A DNA stretch of 64,000 nucleotides, taken from IMG/VR virus record IMGVR_UViG_3300037714_000266, positions 1 through 64,000 of that record. One strand, given 5' to 3'. Shown one piece after another: positions 30,454-35,102 of the stretch. Under the pieces are notes generated by a model. The model was not told the origin of the DNA. It saw nothing but the letters and a program-made list of their open reading frames with translations, and did not search any database. This DNA comes from a virus. Lineage: Duplodnaviria; Caudoviricetes. The position numbers were made by a program, and so were the translations under genes. Each line of letters starts with the position of its first letter. Position 1 is the first letter of the stretch.

Positions 30454-30530
30454 GGGGCTGTAGCTCAGTCTGGTAGAGCATCCGCCTTTTAAGCGGGCGC
30501 GCGTGGGTTCAAATCCCTCCAGCCCCACCA
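30454..30530 (+). tRNA. tRNA-Lys(TTT)
   Basis: Cloverleaf, loop CTTTTAA, CCA. Confidence 0.9.
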
Positions 30531-30533
30531 TTT

Positions 30534-30608
30534 GCCGCAGAAGCTAGACAGGAACAGCACTCGGTTCTTACCCGAGAGATCCCCGGTTCGATTCCGGGTT
30601 GCGGTACC
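30534..30608 (+). tRNA. tRNA-Lys(CTT)
   Basis: Loop TTCTTAC, TTCGATT T-loop. Confidence 0.85.
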
Positions 30609-30613
30609 GACAT

Positions 30614-30687
30614 TCGGGAGTCGTCTAGCGGTAGGACGATCGGCTCTGGACCGATCAACCGGGGTTCGAATCCCTGCTCCCGAACCA
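30614..30687 (+). tRNA. tRNA-Gln(CTG)
   Basis: Loop CTCTGGA, CCA. Confidence 0.9.
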
Positions 30688-30756
30688 AGCACTCGCTCTC
30701 TGACAACTGAAGAAGGAATTTCCAAAAGGAAGGGGTCACCGAAACCCCTTCCACTT

Positions 30757-30832
30757 GGGTCTGAAGCTCAAATGGGAGAGCGGCCGACTGTTAATCGGAT
30801 GGTTGCGGGTTCGATCCCCGCCAGGCCCGCCA
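30757..30832 (+). tRNA. tRNA-Asn(GTT)
   Basis: Loop CTGTTAA, CCA. Confidence 0.9.
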
Positions 30833-30838
30833 AGTCAT

Positions 30839-30913
30839 AGGTCACGGTCTGGGTAACCGGGTTGGTCTCCAAAACCGACCGTCTGCAACGTTCGATTCGT
30901 TGGTGACCTGCCA
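30839..30913 (+). tRNA. tRNA-Trp(CCA)
   Basis: Loop CTCCAAA, GCCA end; atypical D-arm. Confidence 0.8.
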
Positions 30914-30916
30914 AAT

Positions 30917-30993
30917 GGGATGGAAGATGAAGTGGTGGAATCGCTGGCCTGTCACGTCAGAGTAAGCGGGTTCAACTCCCGTCCGTCCCGCCA
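30917..30993 (+). tRNA. tRNA-Asp(GTC)
   Basis: Loop CTGTCAC, GCCA. Confidence 0.9.
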
Positions 30994-30994
30994 C

Positions 30995-31069
30995 GCTGTT
31001 CTTGCGTAAGTGGTCTGCGCGCTCGGCTGAAGCCCGAGAGGACCGGGTTCGATTCCTGGGGACAGCACC
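30995..31069 (+). tRNA. tRNA-Phe(GAA)
   Basis: Loop CTGAAGC. Confidence 0.85.
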
Positions 31070-31143
31070 GGGGTGGAGTCGCGGCGTGCGACGCCTGTTT
31101 TGGGAACAGGAGGCGGCTGGTTCAACTCCAGTCACCCCGACCA
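31069..31143 (+). tRNA. tRNA-Pro(TGG)
   Basis: CGGGGTG acceptor, loop TTTGGGA, ACCA. Confidence 0.85.
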
Positions 31144-31145
31144 AT

Positions 31146-31219
31146 GTCCTCGATGCTCGAATGGAACGAGCGCCGGTTTCCTAAACCGGAGTGTGCAGGT
31201 TCGAATCCTGCCGAGGACG
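31146..31219 (+). tRNA. tRNA-Arg(CCT)
   Basis: Loop TTCCTAA; no encoded CCA. Confidence 0.85.
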
Positions 31220-31232
31220 CTGAAAGATTTTC

Positions 31233-31320
31233 GGAGCGAGGTTTCCATCATGGTAGATGGCTCCCGGCTGTAACCCGGCAGGTGTTCCACACTGGGGTTC
31301 GAATCCCTCCCGCTCCACCA
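31233..31320 (+). tRNA. tRNA-Tyr(GTA)
   Basis: Loop CTGTAAC, long variable arm, ACCA. Confidence 0.85.
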
Positions 31321-31321
31321 T

Positions 31322-31396
31322 TGGACCGGACGGTCTGGTCGACCTGTTTCGCCTGATAAGCGGAGCGGTCAGGTTCAATTCCTGGCGGTCCAACCA
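31322..31396 (+). tRNA. tRNA-Ile(GAT)
   Basis: Loop CTGATAA, ACCA. Confidence 0.85.
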
Positions 31397-31398
31397 AC

Positions 31399-31472
31399 GC
31401 CTCGCAAGCAGAGACGGCGCTGCACTCGCTTGGTATGTGAGTTAGATCGGTTCAAGTCCGATGCGAGGCTCC
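31399..31472 (+). tRNA. tRNA-Thr(GGT)
   Basis: Loop TTGGTAT. Confidence 0.8.
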
Positions 31473-31476
31473 GTAT

Positions 31477-31554
31477 GGTGATCGATGCCGAAGTAGTCGA
31501 GGCGCGCGGTTGTGGACCGCGTTCAAGCGGGTGCGAGTCCCGTCGATCACACCA
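31477..31554 (+). tRNA. tRNA-His(GTG)
   Basis: G-1 present, loop TTGTGGA, ACCA. Confidence 0.9.
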
Positions 31555-31578
31555 GGGTAGCTCAATCGCATGGTAAAT

Positions 31579-31656
31579 GCCCCCGGGTCTAGGAGTGGTT
31601 CTCCTAGCCGTTCTTATAAGGCGGTAAAGCAGGTTCGATTCCTGACGGGCGCACCA
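31579..31656 (+). tRNA. tRNA-Ile(TAT), atypical
   Basis: Loop CTTATAA, GGTTCGATTCC, ACCA; one acceptor mismatch and a weak stem. Confidence 0.55.
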
Positions 31657-31690
31657 AACTGCTGTCGGTTCAAGTCCGACCTGACCCACC

Positions 31691-31762
31691 CGTCCGGTAG
31701 CTCAGTGGTAGAGCGCTCGCTCGACACGCGAGAGGTCGTGGGATCGTGTCCCACCCGGACGA
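31691..31762 (+). tRNA. tRNA-Val(GAC)
   Basis: Loop TCGACAC; atypical T-loop. Confidence 0.8.
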
Positions 31763-31773
31763 CTACACACAAC

Positions 31774-31847
31774 GGGGCCATCGTCTAACGGGAGGACGTC
31801 TCGCTTGCAACGAGAAAATAAGAGTTCGATTCTCTTTGGTTCCACCA
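31774..31847 (+). tRNA. tRNA-Ala(TGC)
   Basis: G3:U70 in acceptor, loop CTTGCAA, ACCA. Confidence 0.9.
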
Positions 31848-31852
31848 CTTTT

Positions 31853-31927
31853 GCGGGTAAGGCCAAATCGGTGAGGCGTCAGGTTTCCACCCTGAAGAAG
31901 TCGGTTCGATCCCGACTGCCCGCTCCA
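31853..31927 (+). tRNA. tRNA-Gly(TCC)
   Basis: Loop TTTCCAC, TCCA. Confidence 0.9.
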
Positions 31928-31930
31928 CTT

Positions 31931-32001
31931 GTCGCGATCTTCTGGGAAGGACACCGGCTGCAACCCGGTGAAGGAGAGTCCGATTCTCTCTCGCGACTCC
32001 A
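31931..32001 (+). tRNA. tRNA-Cys(GCA)
   Basis: Loop CTGCAAC, TCCA. Confidence 0.85.
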
Positions 32002-32007
32002 GAGTTT

Positions 32008-32080
32008 GCTCTCGACGCCGACAGGAACGGCAATCGGATTTCTACTCCGATCTTTTGGGGTTCGAGTCCTCACGAGAGCG
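32008..32080 (+). tRNA. tRNA-Arg(TCT)
   Basis: Loop TTTCTAC. Confidence 0.85.
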
Positions 32081-32084
32081 CTGT

Positions 32085-32160
32085 GACCGTGTAGCTCGAT
32101 TGGACGAGCGCCTGGCTACGAACCAGGAGGATGGGGGTTCGAGTCCCTCCACGGTCGCCA
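32085..32160 (+). tRNA. tRNA-Arg(ACG)
   Basis: Loop CTACGAA, GCCA. Confidence 0.9.
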
Positions 32161-32163
32161 GAT

Positions 32164-32236
32164 GTCTTCGTAGCTCAACAGGAGAGAGCACCGGTCTCCG
32201 AAGCCGGGGATCGTGGTTCGACTCCACGCGAAGACG
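32164..32236 (+). tRNA. tRNA-Arg(CCG)
   Basis: Loop CTCCGAA. Confidence 0.85.
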
Positions 32237-32240
32237 CTGA

Positions 32241-32312
32241 TGCGGGGTGGTGTACTAGAGCACGCCGGCCTCATAAGCCGAAGGACCTGGGCAGTTCAGG
32301 CGACCGCAACCA
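32241..32312 (+). tRNA. tRNA-Met(CAT), degenerate T-arm
   Basis: Loop CTCATAA, ACCA; poor T-loop. Confidence 0.6.
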
Positions 32313-32314
32313 AT

Positions 32315-32386
32315 CCCGGTGTGGGGTCAGAGGAGACCCAGCGGTTTCATAAGCCGCCAGAGTCGGTTCGAGTCCGATCGCCGGGA
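32315..32386 (+). tRNA. tRNA-Met/Ile2(CAT)
   Basis: Loop TTCATAA. Confidence 0.8.
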
Positions 32387-32390
32387 CTGA

Positions 32391-32467
32391 CGGGGTATAG
32401 CGCAGTTTGGAAGCGCGCCGCATTTGGGATCCGGAGGTCGTCGGTTCGAACCCGACTACCCCGACCA
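32391..32467 (+). tRNA. tRNA-Pro(TGG), second copy
   Basis: Loop TTTGGGA, ACCA; one stem mismatch. Confidence 0.85.
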
Positions 32468-32472
32468 CGTGA

Positions 32473-32548
32473 GTGCGGATAGCTCAGATGGAAGAGCGCT
32501 GGTGTTACATACCGGAAGTCGTCGGTTCGAACCCGACTCCGCATACCA
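32473..32548 (+). tRNA. tRNA-Val(TAC)
   Basis: Loop GTTACAT, ACCA. Confidence 0.85.
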
Positions 32549-32549
32549 A

Positions 32550-32637
32550 GCTCAGATGGCGGAATGGCAGACGCGCTGGTTTGAGAGACCAGTGAGGCGT
32601 AGACCTCGTGAGGGTTCGACTCCCTCTCTGAGCACCA
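32550..32637 (+). tRNA. tRNA-Leu(GAG)
   Basis: Long variable arm, loop TTGAGAG, ACCA. Confidence 0.9.
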
Positions 32638-32639
32638 AG

Positions 32640-32722
32640 GCTCGCGTGGCGGAACGCAGACGCAGCTAGCCTAAACCTAGCCGTCCTTCATGGACGTGGG
32701 GGTTCAAATCCCTTCGCGAGCA
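32640..32722 (+). tRNA. tRNA-Leu(TAA)
   Basis: Long variable arm, loop CCTAAAC. Confidence 0.85.
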
Positions 32723-32727
32723 CTCAC

Positions 32728-32812
32728 GGCTGAGTGGCGGAATGGCAGACGCGCCTGGCCTAGGACCAGGTGATCTAAGATCGTGCAGGTTCGACTCCTG
32801 TCTCAGCTACCA
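32728..32812 (+). tRNA. tRNA-Leu(TAG)
   Basis: Long variable arm, loop CCTAGGA, ACCA. Confidence 0.9.
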
Positions 32813-32813
32813 T

Positions 32814-32899
32814 GCAAGCGTGGCGAAACGGAAAACGCAGCAGATTCAAGTCCTGCTGGCCCGCGAGGTCTTGTGAGTTCGAATCTCACCGCTTGCACC
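32814..32899 (+). tRNA. tRNA-Leu(CAA)
   Basis: Long variable arm, loop TTCAAGT. Confidence 0.85.
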
Positions 32900-32931
32900 G
32901 AAAACCAATAACCAAAGAAAGGAGACGACCG

Positions 32932-33465
32932 ATGCGTACGCTCGTATTGGATCGTTCATACCAGCCGCATCGTGTCGTTTCGTGGCAGCGCGCCGTCACG
33001 ATGCTCTTCCAAGGAAAGATCGAGGTGCTCGAAGAGTACGACGAGGACATTCGATCCGTCTCGATCACAATCAAGATGCCGGCCGTCGTCCGGCTTCTTC
33101 ACCACGTCACTGGACGTAAGAGAGCAATCAAGTTCTCGCGGATCAACGTGGCGACTCGTGATGACTTTCGTTGCCAATACTGCGGAGCCAAACACGCACT
33201 CGGCAAACTCACATACGACCACATTGTTCCGCGAGGCCAAGGCGGCCTGACGACGTGGACGAACATCACGATGGCCTGTTACGGCTGCAACGAGAAGAAG
33301 GGCAACCGAACCCCAGAGCAAGCGGGGATGCGGCTCAAGAAGCTTCCTGTGAAGCCAGAGAGCCTTCCAGTGGTCGTCTTCAGGATCGATCCACAAGCAA
33401 CGATCCCAGAACAGTGGGTCAACTTCATCTACTGGCACGGATCGCTGGATGACGAGGGATCGTGA
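32932..33465 (+). CDS. HNH endonuclease (McrA-like) inside the tRNA array
   Basis: AAGGAG RBS; RDDFRCQYCG...LTYDHIVPRGQGG..TWTN...AC..CN..KGNRTP. Confidence 0.9.
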   Translation: MRTLVLDRSYQPHRVVSWQRAVTMLFQGKIEVLEEYDEDIRSVSITIKMPAVVRLLHHVTGRKRAIKFSRINVATRDDFRCQYCGAKHALGKLTYDHIVPRGQGGLTTWTNITMACYGCNEKKGNRTPEQAGMRLKKLPVKPESLPVVVFRIDPQATIPEQWVNFIYWHGSLDDEGS

Positions 33466-33554
33466 AAAGTCTCCGACTCGATTGAGTCCTTGGACCGGCC
33501 GGCATGGCGGCCGGTGAGAAAAACCTCCCGTCCAAAGGAGGACCATCGCACCAA

Positions 33555-33631
33555 CGGGGTGTAGCTCAGCTTGGAAGAGCGCTCGTTTCGGGAACGAGAG
33601 GCCGCTGGTTCGAATCCAGTCACCCCGACCA
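33555..33631 (+). tRNA. tRNA-Pro(CGG)
   Basis: Loop TTCGGGA, ACCA. Confidence 0.9.
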
Positions 33632-33632
33632 C

Positions 33633-33716
33633 GGAGAGAGAACCGATCCGGGATCGGCCTGGTCTTGAACACCAAGGGACGAGATCGTTGGGGTTCGACT
33701 CCTCCTCTCTCCGCCA
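33633..33716 (+). tRNA. tRNA-Ser(TGA)
   Basis: Loop CTTGAAC, long variable arm, GCCA. Confidence 0.85.
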
Positions 33717-33718
33717 AT

Positions 33719-33804
33719 GGAGACTGATCCGAGCTGGGCTCGGCGCCGCTTGGAAAGCGGTTGGGCGCTTCGGTGTTGCGGTTCGATTCCGTCTGTCTCC
33801 GCCA
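33719..33804 (+). tRNA. tRNA-Ser(GGA)
   Basis: Loop TTGGAAA, long variable arm, GCCA. Confidence 0.85.
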
Positions 33805-33876
33805 TGACCGGTCGGCGGAAGGCTCAAAAACGAGCCTAAGTCATCGACATGACTCACTTTAGACTGGTCGTCTCAT

Positions 33877-33964
33877 GGTAACTGAATCGAGCAAGGCTCG
33901 GACCCCGTTGCTAGCGGGTGTGACGTCGTAAGGCGTTGGGGATCAAGACCTCCGGTTACCGCCA
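33877..33964 (+). tRNA. tRNA-Ser(GCT)
   Basis: Loop TTGCTAG, long variable arm, GCCA. Confidence 0.8.
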
Positions 33965-34003
33965 TGCGGATGTAGCTCAGTTGGAAGAGCGCGATCTTGC
34001 CAA

Positions 34004-34574
34004 CGGCTACGGGTTCGAATACGGTGTCGTATGGGACAACCAGCGCGGTGGAACGGGAGACACGTTTACTATACCGCCTCTGATTACCCGCGGGTTCTTT
34101 GGCCAGAACATCCTATGGCGAAGAGCGATGGGATGGTTCGTATTCATCGGGCGGTGGCGGCTGAAGCGGCCGGCCGACCGCTCCGACCAAGCGAGCACGT
34201 ACACCACAAAAATGGCGTTCGGAACGACTGGCGTGCCGACAACCTGGAAATATGCTCTCCCACGGAACACCGCATCAAGCACGCGATGCAGCAGCGCGTT
34301 ACTTTCGGTTGTGCAAGTTGCGGGATAGAGGTCGTGCGCGCACGTTCGCATGTGCGAGGCGAGAAGTCATACTGCTCGCATAAGTGCGCGCACAAGGCTA
34401 CTGAACGTACCAGGTACCCCGACAATGATGAGCTGGCAAAGTGGGTATGGCGAGAGCCGCTCACGGCGATCGCAGTGAAACTCGGCGTGTCCGATAAAGC
34501 GCTAGCCAAGAGGTGTAAGATTCGGAAGATTTCGACCCCGGGTCGGGGGTACTGGTCTAAGCGGCGATAGGTTC
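34004..34574 (+). mobile_element. HNH-carrying insertion/intron-like element at tRNA position 38/39
   Basis: Clean insertion without target duplication; 27 nt before and 4 nt after the HNH ORF. Confidence 0.75.
34031..34570 (+). CDS. HNH homing endonuclease
   Basis: HRAVAAEAAGRPL.PSEHVHHKNG.R.D.R.DNLE...H; CxxC/CxxxC zinc finger; HTH-like tail LGVSDKALAKRC...PGRGYW. Confidence 0.9.
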   Translation: MGQPARWNGRHVYYTASDYPRVLWPEHPMAKSDGMVRIHRAVAAEAAGRPLRPSEHVHHKNGVRNDWRADNLEICSPTEHRIKHAMQQRVTFGCASCGIEVVRARSHVRGEKSYCSHKCAHKATERTRYPDNDELAKWVWREPLTAIAVKLGVSDKALAKRCKIRKISTPGRGYWSKRR

Positions 34575-34614
34575 GGTCGAGGCCATGGGTTCGAGCCCCA
34601 TTATCCGCTCCAAT

Positions 34615-34690
34615 GTCCCCGTCATCTAGTGGCTCAGGATGCTGGCCCCTCAAGCCGGTCACAACGGTTCAAATCCGTTCGGGGACGCCA
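34615..34690 (+). tRNA. tRNA-Glu(CTC)
   Basis: Loop CCCTCAA, GCCA. Confidence 0.9.
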
Positions 34691-34691
34691 A

Positions 34692-34778
34692 GGAAGGTGA
34701 AGACTCAGTGGTGGGTCACCCGTTTCGAAAGCGGGGTTACGCGCAAGCGTAAGGGGTTCGACTCCTCCTCCTTCCACC
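34692..34778 (+). tRNA. tRNA-Ser(CGA)
   Basis: Loop TTCGAAA, long variable arm. Confidence 0.85.
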
Positions 34779-34782
34779 GTCA

Positions 34783-34856
34783 GGCCCTGTCGTCTATTGG
34801 TTAGGATCGGAGTCTTTCAACCTCCGGAACGGGGTTCGATTCCCCGCAGGGTCACC
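34783..34856 (+). tRNA. tRNA-Glu(TTC)
   Basis: Loop CTTTCAA. Confidence 0.85.
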
Positions 34857-34872
34857 TCGGGAAATTCCTTCG

Positions 34873-34949
34873 GCCGGTGAGGTCCCATTGGCAGGGGCGC
34901 CCGTTTTGTACGCGGGAGACTGTGGGTTCGAATCCCTCCGCCGGCTCCA
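34873..34949 (+). tRNA. tRNA-Thr(TGT)
   Basis: Loop TTTGTAC, TCCA. Confidence 0.85.
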
Positions 34950-34952
34950 TTT

Positions 34953-35028
34953 GCCCTTGAAGTCTCAATGGAGAGACGCCCGTTTCGTATTCGGGAGGCG
35001 ATCGGTTCGATCCCGATCAAGGGCTCCA
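34953..35028 (+). tRNA. tRNA-Thr(CGT)
   Basis: Loop TTCGTAT, TCCA. Confidence 0.85.
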
Positions 35029-35029
35029 T

Positions 35030-35102
35030 TGGGACGTCCCGCGGGTCGGGTGGTCGGCCTTTGAAGCCGATGACGGTGAGTTCGAGTCTTCCCGTCCCAG
35101 CC
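35030..35102 (+). tRNA. tRNA-Gln(TTG)
   Basis: Loop CTTTGAA. Confidence 0.8.

Follow-up and report, generated by a model that had tools for sequence, protein, structure and literature searches.

The only tRNA-Gly(GCC) gene in the phage sequence studied here is interrupted, precisely after position 38, by a cassette with a gene for an HNH homing endonuclease, and this cassette has no room for, and bears no sign of, a splicing RNA. The most probable reading of this arrangement, at about 0.72, is an intron-less homing-endonuclease insertion by which the tRNA was inactivated, the remnant of the anticodon loop possibly being reused as a promoter of the nuclease gene.

The split tRNA-Gly(GCC) gene and its array

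The analysed window covers the opening 64 kb of an IMG/VR viral contig that is 78 kb long and, by CheckV, 41% complete. The window has a GC content of ~58% and contains baseplate and tape-measure genes of the myovirus type. The tRNA array occupies positions 30454–35102 on the + strand and contains 34 genes at ARAGORN default settings, or 37 once the lower-stringency Tyr, Ile(UAU) and Ser(CGA) genes are counted in. A search of deposited phages for close DNA relatives gave only an 80-nt tRNA match, and an exact-peptide search of IMG/VR with the HNH protein and the neighbouring 494-aa protein gave no match. The features of the split gene are as follows.

33966–34003, + strand: 5' half of tRNA-Gly(GCC), tRNA positions 1–38, with the acceptor 5' strand, a canonical D-arm, the anticodon-stem 5' strand and the whole anticodon loop
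33997–34002, + strand: TTGCCA of the anticodon loop, candidate -35 box of an HNH promoter
34004–34574, + strand: insert of 571 nt between tRNA positions 38 and 39
34004–34030, + strand: cassette leader, 27 nt
34011–34018, + strand: T-loop-like GGGTTCGA inside the leader
34020–34025, + strand: -10-like hexamer TACGGT inside the leader
34031–34570, + strand: HNH homing-endonuclease gene, 540 nt, 179 aa, with an HNH_3 nuclease domain, a four-cysteine zinc ribbon and a C-terminal helix-turn-helix
34561–34574, + strand: last 10 nt of the ORF and the 4-nt spacer GTTC, tentatively a vestige of a tRNA-Gly 5' end that once lay 3' of the HNH gene
34575–34612, + strand: 3' half of tRNA-Gly(GCC), positions 39–76, with the anticodon-stem 3' strand, variable loop, T-arm, acceptor 3' strand, U73 and encoded CCA

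With introns allowed, ARAGORN calls a tRNA-Gly(gcc) over 33966–34612. Its drawing has a 550-nt intron and a long extra arm; the simpler reading, with 571 nt removed, gives a standard cloverleaf. The two halves then pair with each other at 7/7 acceptor positions (one of them G-U) and at 5/5 positions of the anticodon stem, and the minimum-energy fold of the rejoined halves is essentially the cloverleaf. The rejoined sequence of 76 nt is colinear, with no base gained or lost, with the intact tRNA-Gly(GCC) of an unrelated contig (L012, 42% GC), which came from a search with the T-arm and acceptor of the 3' half and served as the intact reference. The two sequences match at 65 of 76 positions, and those differences in the acceptor and anticodon stems that were inspected keep pairing. 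The original prediction, which placed two intact halves around a 571-bp insert at 38/39, is confirmed in its coordinates and by this colinearity. The same holds for its description of the ORF (34031–34570) as filling the insert except for 27 nt upstream and 4 nt downstream, and for the junctions, A/C and C/G. A splice one base earlier, at 37/38, can be drawn equally well and gives C38.

The gene had also been described as the only one in the array with a GCC anticodon, and ARAGORN finds no second one on the entire 78-kb contig, which is 41% complete. At this completeness, the rest of the genome could contain a further tRNA-Gly(GCC) or genes for RNA repair. In 18 long phage ORFs, GGC and GGU together make up 62% of the glycine codons, so some cost is to be expected from loss of the tRNA.

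The split does not result from misassembly, because the same split and the same HNH gene are found in an independent contig of 1086 bp from JGI 3300042196 (L002), whose upstream tRNAs have diverged by ~10%. The 3' half is identical in the two contigs. Two changes separate the split tRNA of the window from that of L002, and both are in the 5' half. One lies in the D-loop; the other, C11 to G in L002, is the only stem change, breaks pair 11-24 and shifts the cloverleaf from -23.4 to -20.0 kcal/mol. The earlier observation that both halves are free of visible decay is thus correct for the window and does not extend to this sister copy, in which a D-stem pair is broken. The neighbouring tRNAs differ between the two contigs at 10–15% of positions and show seven double compensatory changes, three in Ser(UGA) and four in a Ser(GCU)-like gene; some Ser-tRNA positions flagged as broken were left uncounted, since the minimum-energy folds there are not true cloverleaves. 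Within the insert, GGGTTCGA is changed to GGGCTCGA in L002, and the HNH genes show five differences, four of them nonsynonymous. The changes between the window and L002 are compatible with neutral drift and are too few to prove it.

The HNH gene and the tests for splicing

The ORF matches Pfam HNH_3 (PF13392) and, over its full length, phrog_15471, annotated as 'HNH endonuclease'. A search of 1.8 billion representative proteins returned 766 relatives at E<=1e-10, most of which align over residues ~5–179, and for this reason both ends of the ORF are taken to be genuine. In a 14-member alignment, the window protein shares its start and end with the family and keeps all invariant columns (His58, His59, Asn71, His80, His84 and four Cys). 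Its C-terminal helix-turn-helix resembles LrpA. The gene thus encodes an intact nuclease of a homing-endonuclease family. Conservation of the full-length protein leaves no spare insert sequence for a ribozyme; the non-coding part of the insert amounts to only 31 nt.

In an Rfam search of positions 33500–35000 with permissive filters, only the neighbouring tRNAs and noise were returned at E<=10, and no group I intron, group II intron or small self-cleaving ribozyme matched within the insert at this threshold. The fold of the insert is unremarkable, with a z-score of -1.28 and 14 of 100 shuffles at least as stable. Bacterial tRNA genes can harbour group I introns in the anticodon loop, some of them with homing endonucleases, such as the cyanobacterial tRNA-fMet intron and I-SspI. 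Such tRNA introns have a ribozyme core of at least ~200 nt, a U that ends the 5' exon and a terminal G. The window shares with the tRNA-fMet intron a nuclease gene in the anticodon loop and base-exact exon boundaries. Unlike that intron, it has no ribozyme core (for P3–P9, no Intron_gpI match at E<=10), no 5'-exon U and no terminal G. The 5' exon ends in A, at 34003 or, in the alternative register, at 34002, the insert ends in C or T, and no pair of cut sites with the U and the G rebuilds the 7-nt anticodon loop. A group II intron is characterised by GUGYG...AY boundaries, domain V and a reverse transcriptase; the boundaries found are CGGCU...GUUC, and the ORF contains HNH_3 only.

A self-splicing ribozyme, group I-like or new, might be hidden within the coding sequence itself, as in some phage group I introns whose ORFs extend into core elements. 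Here, this is highly improbable. For every splice choice that gives a 7-nt loop, the 5' exon ends in A rather than U and the insert does not end in G. The Rfam result and the fold statistics point the same way, and the protein is conserved over its full length and is free-standing, outside any exon context, in most relatives.

Bulge-helix-bulge (BHB) geometry, with two 3-nt bulges around a 4-bp helix, was scored for every pair of cut sites near the junctions. Only two pairs rebuild the 7-nt loop, and their central helix has 1/4 pairs in the 38/39 register and 2/4 in the 37/38 register. Geometries with 4/4 central-helix pairs do exist; their products are not tRNAs. Pairing between the two ends of the insert is absent: in both the minimum-energy and the centroid folds, the first bases have internal partners and the last 9–13 have none, and the insert is not tRNA-shaped. 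The end sequences are not complementary by eye, and no acceptor-stem-like pairing of the insert ends was seen. The view that the insert fits neither group I nor group II introns nor a canonical BHB is therefore upheld by the boundaries, by Rfam at E<=10 and by the 1/4 or 2/4 pairing. The covariance search with intron models likewise revealed, at that threshold, no group I core overlapping the ORF.

Splicing could also proceed with proteins only. In such a ribozyme-free intron, the tRNA body would fold, endonucleases would cut both ends, and a ligase, either host RtcB or a phage enzyme, would join the halves into a working tRNA. We consider this quite unlikely, and the original suggestion of an unusual splicing or RtcB-type route gains no support from the missing BHB, the empty Rfam search, the unremarkable fold and the decaying relatives described below. 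The flawless halves and the base-exact insertion of the window are, all the same, also the look of a spliced element. The gene is the sole GCC decoder in an otherwise complete array, and the codons GGC and GGU are the main glycine codons. There is a possible parallel in Lak megaphages, whose 'enigmatic' tRNA introns are of unexplained mechanism and vary between related genomes (PMC6784885). As there, a mechanism-less insert interrupts a phage tRNA gene, and splicing is likewise unproven. The Lak inserts were reported without a nuclease gene, one of them possibly encoding a tRNA, whereas the window insert contains the HNH gene (PMC6784885).

The enzymes that such a route might use were searched for with the profiles PF01974, PF01139, PF09414 and PF09511. 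No RtcB, Rnl2, Rnl1 or EndA was found on the 78-kb contig, which is 41% complete, and the Rnl1 control (PF09511) registered nowhere; the suggested look for RtcB or another RNA ligase elsewhere in the genome gave none in this sequence. The 3' ends of the two split inserts, that of the window and that of L094 (below), have nothing in common, and this absence of a conserved 3' element speaks against such a route. Additionally, the halves would have to be ligated. Colicin D kills tRNA-Arg by a break at 38/39, and since this is the same break, unligated halves would not decode. The more specific proposal, in which the HNH gene is cargo of the ribozyme-free intron, RNases cut at 38/39 and an RtcB-type or phage ligase seals the loop so that tRNA-Gly(GCC) works, is improbable.

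Related cassettes in other phage tRNA arrays

The contigs encoding the closest HNH homologs (40–50% identity) were fetched, and ARAGORN was run on each. All homolog loci lie in phage tRNA arrays except L093, a 1.5-kb contig on which no tRNA was called. In the typical arrangement, a free-standing homolog gene directly adjoins the 5' end of an intact tRNA, and in several loci the HNH stop codon falls at tRNA positions 8–10. The intact tRNAs that adjoin the free-standing genes are the following.

Gly-GCC: L008, L010, L011
Gly-TCC: L003, L007
Asp: L009
Asn: L096

Among 80 more distant HNH_3 loci, nine are near tRNAs and none is embedded in one. The HNH clade is, judged from these loci, resident in phage tRNA arrays and associated with tRNA-Gly genes. 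Its members occupy differing tRNA neighbourhoods. The state of the flanking tRNA-Gly(GCC) differs from cassette to cassette.

Window: both halves intact
L002: split, pair 11-24 of the D-stem broken
L094: split, with a decayed tRNA
L010: 5' half without a 3' partner, with an intact tRNA-Gly(GCC) after the HNH gene
L011: only ~10 nt around the anticodon loop, with an intact tRNA-Gly(GCC) after the HNH gene
L008: no tRNA piece, GGGTTCGA as part of the leader only, with an intact tRNA-Gly(GCC) after the HNH gene

Four cassettes (window, L094, L010 and L011), 45–50% identical in protein, share TTGCCA, then exactly 8 nt, then GGGTTCGA and, 5–6 nt upstream of the ATG, a TAnnnT hexamer. The 8-nt spacers are wholly different from locus to locus. 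When the pattern TTGCCA-N8-GGGTTCGA was sought in IMG/VR as a whole, at least 116 matches were returned, none of them followed by this HNH family, and they were attributed to chance.

L094 contains a second tRNA-Gly(GCC) split at the same position, with an HNH protein 46% identical to that of the window. Its 3' part starts at the last base of the stop codon, its acceptor strand pairs at 7/7 positions with the 5' half, and ARAGORN calls the rejoined pieces as tRNA-Gly(gcc). The D-arm of this tRNA is poor, with 3 nt of the D-stem 5' strand missing relative to the similar 5' half of L010, and the anticodon stem contains an A.C mismatch. The HNH protein of L094 ends early, without the last part of the family C-terminus. 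In L010, the 5' half has no 3' partner in the locus; the sole matching acceptor strand belongs to a complete tRNA-Gly(CCC). In L011, tRNA-Gly genes lie on both sides of the HNH gene.

The occupation of the same site in the distant lineage of L094 would suit a ribozyme-free intron. The structure-breaking changes in L002 and L094 speak against it, as do the related cassettes that keep an orphan half or none beside a separate intact tRNA-Gly(GCC). The tRNA pieces around the cassettes read, on comparison of six loci with a poorly resolved tree, as a decay series. The HNH proteins of the cassettes are mutually 43–50% identical. Their tree is star-like; the window groups weakly with L008 (88/87), and the decay states cannot be put in order from it.

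The array of L008 is syntenic with that of the window and opens with the same tRNA order; both arrays have a second HNH gene at the same place, after tRNA-Leu(CAA), and these two are 45% identical. The block of HNH gene and Gly-GCC gene in L008 lies between tRNA-Pro(TGG) and tRNA-Arg(CCT); in the window, only 2 nt separate these two tRNA genes. The block is placed elsewhere in a syntenic array and is, for this reason, considered mobile. An apparent resident 3' half downstream of the intact tRNA of L008 was rejected, as it belongs to a complete tRNA-His(GTG) missed by ARAGORN. Searches of IMG/VR for an unsplit anticodon arm found none. The T-arm of the upstream tRNA-Ser(GCU)-like gene, used to look for an empty-site allele, gave no match in IMG/VR and one chance match in a bacterial coding region (L213). 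Neither the arm search nor the T-arm search thus recovered an empty allele of the window's own site.

Origin of the cassette and its place among known systems

The shared upstream layout may have a promoter function. The arrangement TTGCCA-N17-TAnnnT-N5/6-ATG is the only promoter-like match in ~850 nt in each of L010, L011 and L094, with scores of 10/12, 9/12 and 9/12, respectively. The window version scores 8/12, which is under the threshold of the tool, and a sigma-70 scan of the window returned no site at threshold. From this pattern, we infer that the anticodon-loop remnant TTGCCA may act as the -35 box of a leaderless HNH mRNA. A -35 role and a leaderless mRNA would explain why the 27-nt leader has no Shine-Dalgarno sequence and why TTGCCA survives in L011.

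The distance from TTGCCA to GGGTTCGA is 13 nt in the intact gene and 8 nt in the cassette. GGGTTCGA could represent either a copy of the recognition site that no longer functions or the vestige of a tRNA T-loop. The leader as a whole was also compared with tRNAs as a candidate remnant; none of those compared matches at 19/27 or better, and this idea was dropped. At the other end of the insert, the last 12 nt of the ORF differ at two positions between L010 and the window, and 10 of them equal positions 1–10 of the intact tRNA-Gly(GCC) of L010. Positions 34561–34574 may be the stump of a tRNA-Gly that formerly followed the HNH gene, and the L010-like ORF end could be explained equally by conserved Lys-Arg codons alone.

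Some of these traces would also be left by an origin from two gene copies, in which a free-standing HNH gene lay between tandem tRNA-Gly(GCC) genes, the upstream copy lost its 3' part and the downstream copy its 5' part. The tRNA would then be dead as well. The T-loop-like motif would be a decayed T-arm, at the spacing expected after a 5-nt deletion (8 instead of 13 nt), and the 7 nt before GGGTTCGA match the variable loop and T-stem of the same tRNA at 4/7 positions in both the window and L094. The tRNA-like ORF end and the L011 gene with tRNA-Gly on either side would have a ready place in such a scheme. Nevertheless, it is unlikely: it needs two truncations that end exactly complementary (1–38 and 39–76), and this in two lineages. 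The lack of a tRNA match for the leader counts against it too, and the sequence after the motif cannot form a T-stem.

Homing endonuclease genes in phage tRNA regions are known from several systems. The tRNA region of phage T5 has the HNH nucleases F-TflI/II/IV. Among the coding genes within tRNA arrays of mycobacteriophages and mycobacterial plasmids, those for HNH nucleases are the most frequent, and they have been connected with the turnover of tRNA repertoires (PMC5966550). The window resembles these mycobacteriophage and T5 arrays in having an HNH-type nuclease within a tRNA array. The array HNH genes are described between tRNA genes, whereas that of the window is inside an anticodon loop. 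In phage T4, SegB is a free-standing homing endonuclease in the tRNA cluster that recognises a motif of the T-psi-C stem-loop of tRNA genes (PMC2330249). SegB of T4 and T6 is a GIY-YIG enzyme and spreads together with neighbouring tRNA genes (PMC2330249; PMC13096335). The window likewise has a homing endonuclease gene among phage tRNA genes, and targeting of tRNA genes is the feature of SegB. In contrast to SegB, which is GIY-YIG and encoded between tRNA genes, its nuclease is HNH and is encoded inside a tRNA gene, splitting the anticodon loop. Among the literature titles and abstracts searched, none describes an intron-less nuclease gene in a phage tRNA anticodon loop.

The preferred reading, an intron-less homing cassette, would proceed as follows. 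The enzyme would cut tRNA-Gly(GCC) genes in or near the anticodon loop and, by analogy with T4 SegB, probably recognises features of the tRNA-Gly gene. The cassette would enter at the break; its source would be either a split allele, through homing, or a free-standing copy, through illegitimate repair. The tRNA gene would thereby be inactivated, and a host tRNA would read the GGC and GGU codons. In the window, the halves would still be clean because little time has elapsed. Decay of the halves would follow, as in the sister variant and in older cassettes, or a separate intact tRNA-Gly(GCC) beside the nuclease gene would take over. TTGCCA would probably persist as the -35 box that starts the leaderless HNH mRNA, and GGGTTCGA may be what remains of a tRNA-derived site recognised by the enzyme, at a spacing that no longer fits. 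In L010 and L011, the remnant and the HNH gene are followed by an intact tRNA with the same anticodon. The cassette of the window carries no replacement tRNA, at most a vestige of 10–14 nt, and the phage is consequently left without a Gly-GCC gene in the contig sequence.

The proposal of a very recent homing insertion is thus supported as far as homing is concerned. 'Very recent' is not shown, as two variants share the element and L094 has the same position with an HNH protein of 46% identity. The HNH proteins of the two lineages that share this site are only ~45% identical, and a harmless insert would make it easier to see how one position of a useful gene stayed occupied for so long.

The common view is that a homing endonuclease gene persists in an essential or useful gene only within a self-splicing intron or intein, and otherwise between genes. 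In the present case, a member of a nuclease clade whose usual place is next to tRNA-Gly genes is found inside such a gene, without splicing RNA, and its relatives show decay, an orphan half or a remnant. The shared upstream layout suggests that the anticodon loop of the broken gene has been put to new use as a promoter element. In phage tRNA inventories made with standard finders, genes of this kind are missed or miscounted. If the junction were found to be ligated in RNA, a new splicing route would be revealed, and a true ribozyme-free intron would mean protein-only tRNA splicing in a bacterial system, independent of the BHB/EndA machinery. In general, two questions can be followed in the natural series formed by the window and its relatives: by which steps a nuclease gene of this kind enters its own target, and what state an invaded RNA gene is in before there is any intron.

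A second broken tRNA gene and a second HNH gene in the array

The tRNA array of the window contains further features of interest besides the tRNA-Gly(GCC) gene that is split by the HNH endonuclease gene. Those considered here are as follows:

31579-31656, + strand: tRNA-Ile(UAU), lying inside the broken-tRNA region 31555-31690
32932-33465, + strand: second HNH gene, free-standing (Pfam HNH/HNH_5, phrog_16726)
33806-33874, + strand: stretch of ~69 nt that separates tRNA-Ser(GGA) from the Ser(GCU)-like gene in the window and is missing from L002
33876-33964, + strand: tRNA-Ser(GCU)-like gene with a cloverleaf-like fold

The tRNA-Ile(UAU) gene is flanked on one side by a short 5' tRNA fragment and on the other by an orphan T-arm with the 3' strand of an acceptor stem. 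The region is another broken tRNA gene of the same array, and its insert is itself a tRNA. It resembles the tRNA-within-tRNA case that has been published for Lak phages (PMC6784885). The second HNH gene is unrelated to the HNH of the split tRNA, is preceded by a good Shine-Dalgarno sequence, and lies between tRNA-Leu(CAA) and tRNA-Pro(CGG). At the equivalent position of the related, syntenic array L008, there is a gene that is 45% identical to it.

The Ser(GCU)-like gene upstream of the split tRNA-Gly

In the Ser(GCU)-like gene the extra arm is long and the T-loop (ATCAAGA) is odd. The gene was not called by ARAGORN, even at low stringency, and no Rfam match was obtained. Comparison of the window with the sister contig L002 revealed four base pairs in which both sides had changed, and because of these two-sided changes, the alignment supports a real structured RNA at this position. 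The ~69-nt stretch appears as an alignment gap in L002.

tRNA genes and tRNA pieces around related HNH genes

Genes of the HNH family to which the nuclease of the split tRNA-Gly belongs are also found close to tRNA sequences at other loci. In L095, the ATG of the family HNH overlaps the CCA of tRNA-Asp, and its stop codon is immediately followed by an orphan T-arm and acceptor 3' strand (2176-2215), for which no 5' partner was found in the locus. In L008, the anticodon loop of the tRNA-Gly(GCC) located 3' of the HNH is unusual in carrying C33, and a complete tRNA-His(GUG) that was uncalled by ARAGORN (~2136-2211) lies between this tRNA-Gly(GCC) and tRNA-Arg(CCU). In L006 (1-1507), a Ro60/TROVE-family gene adjoins a large phage tRNA array; this array also contains an HNH of the family, on the opposite strand.

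In three lineages (L003, L008 and L010), the stop codon of the HNH gene falls at positions 8-10 of the downstream tRNA. Processing of this tRNA by RNase P would therefore remove the stop codon from the HNH mRNA. Judging from this gene arrangement, such removal could limit the expression of the nuclease.
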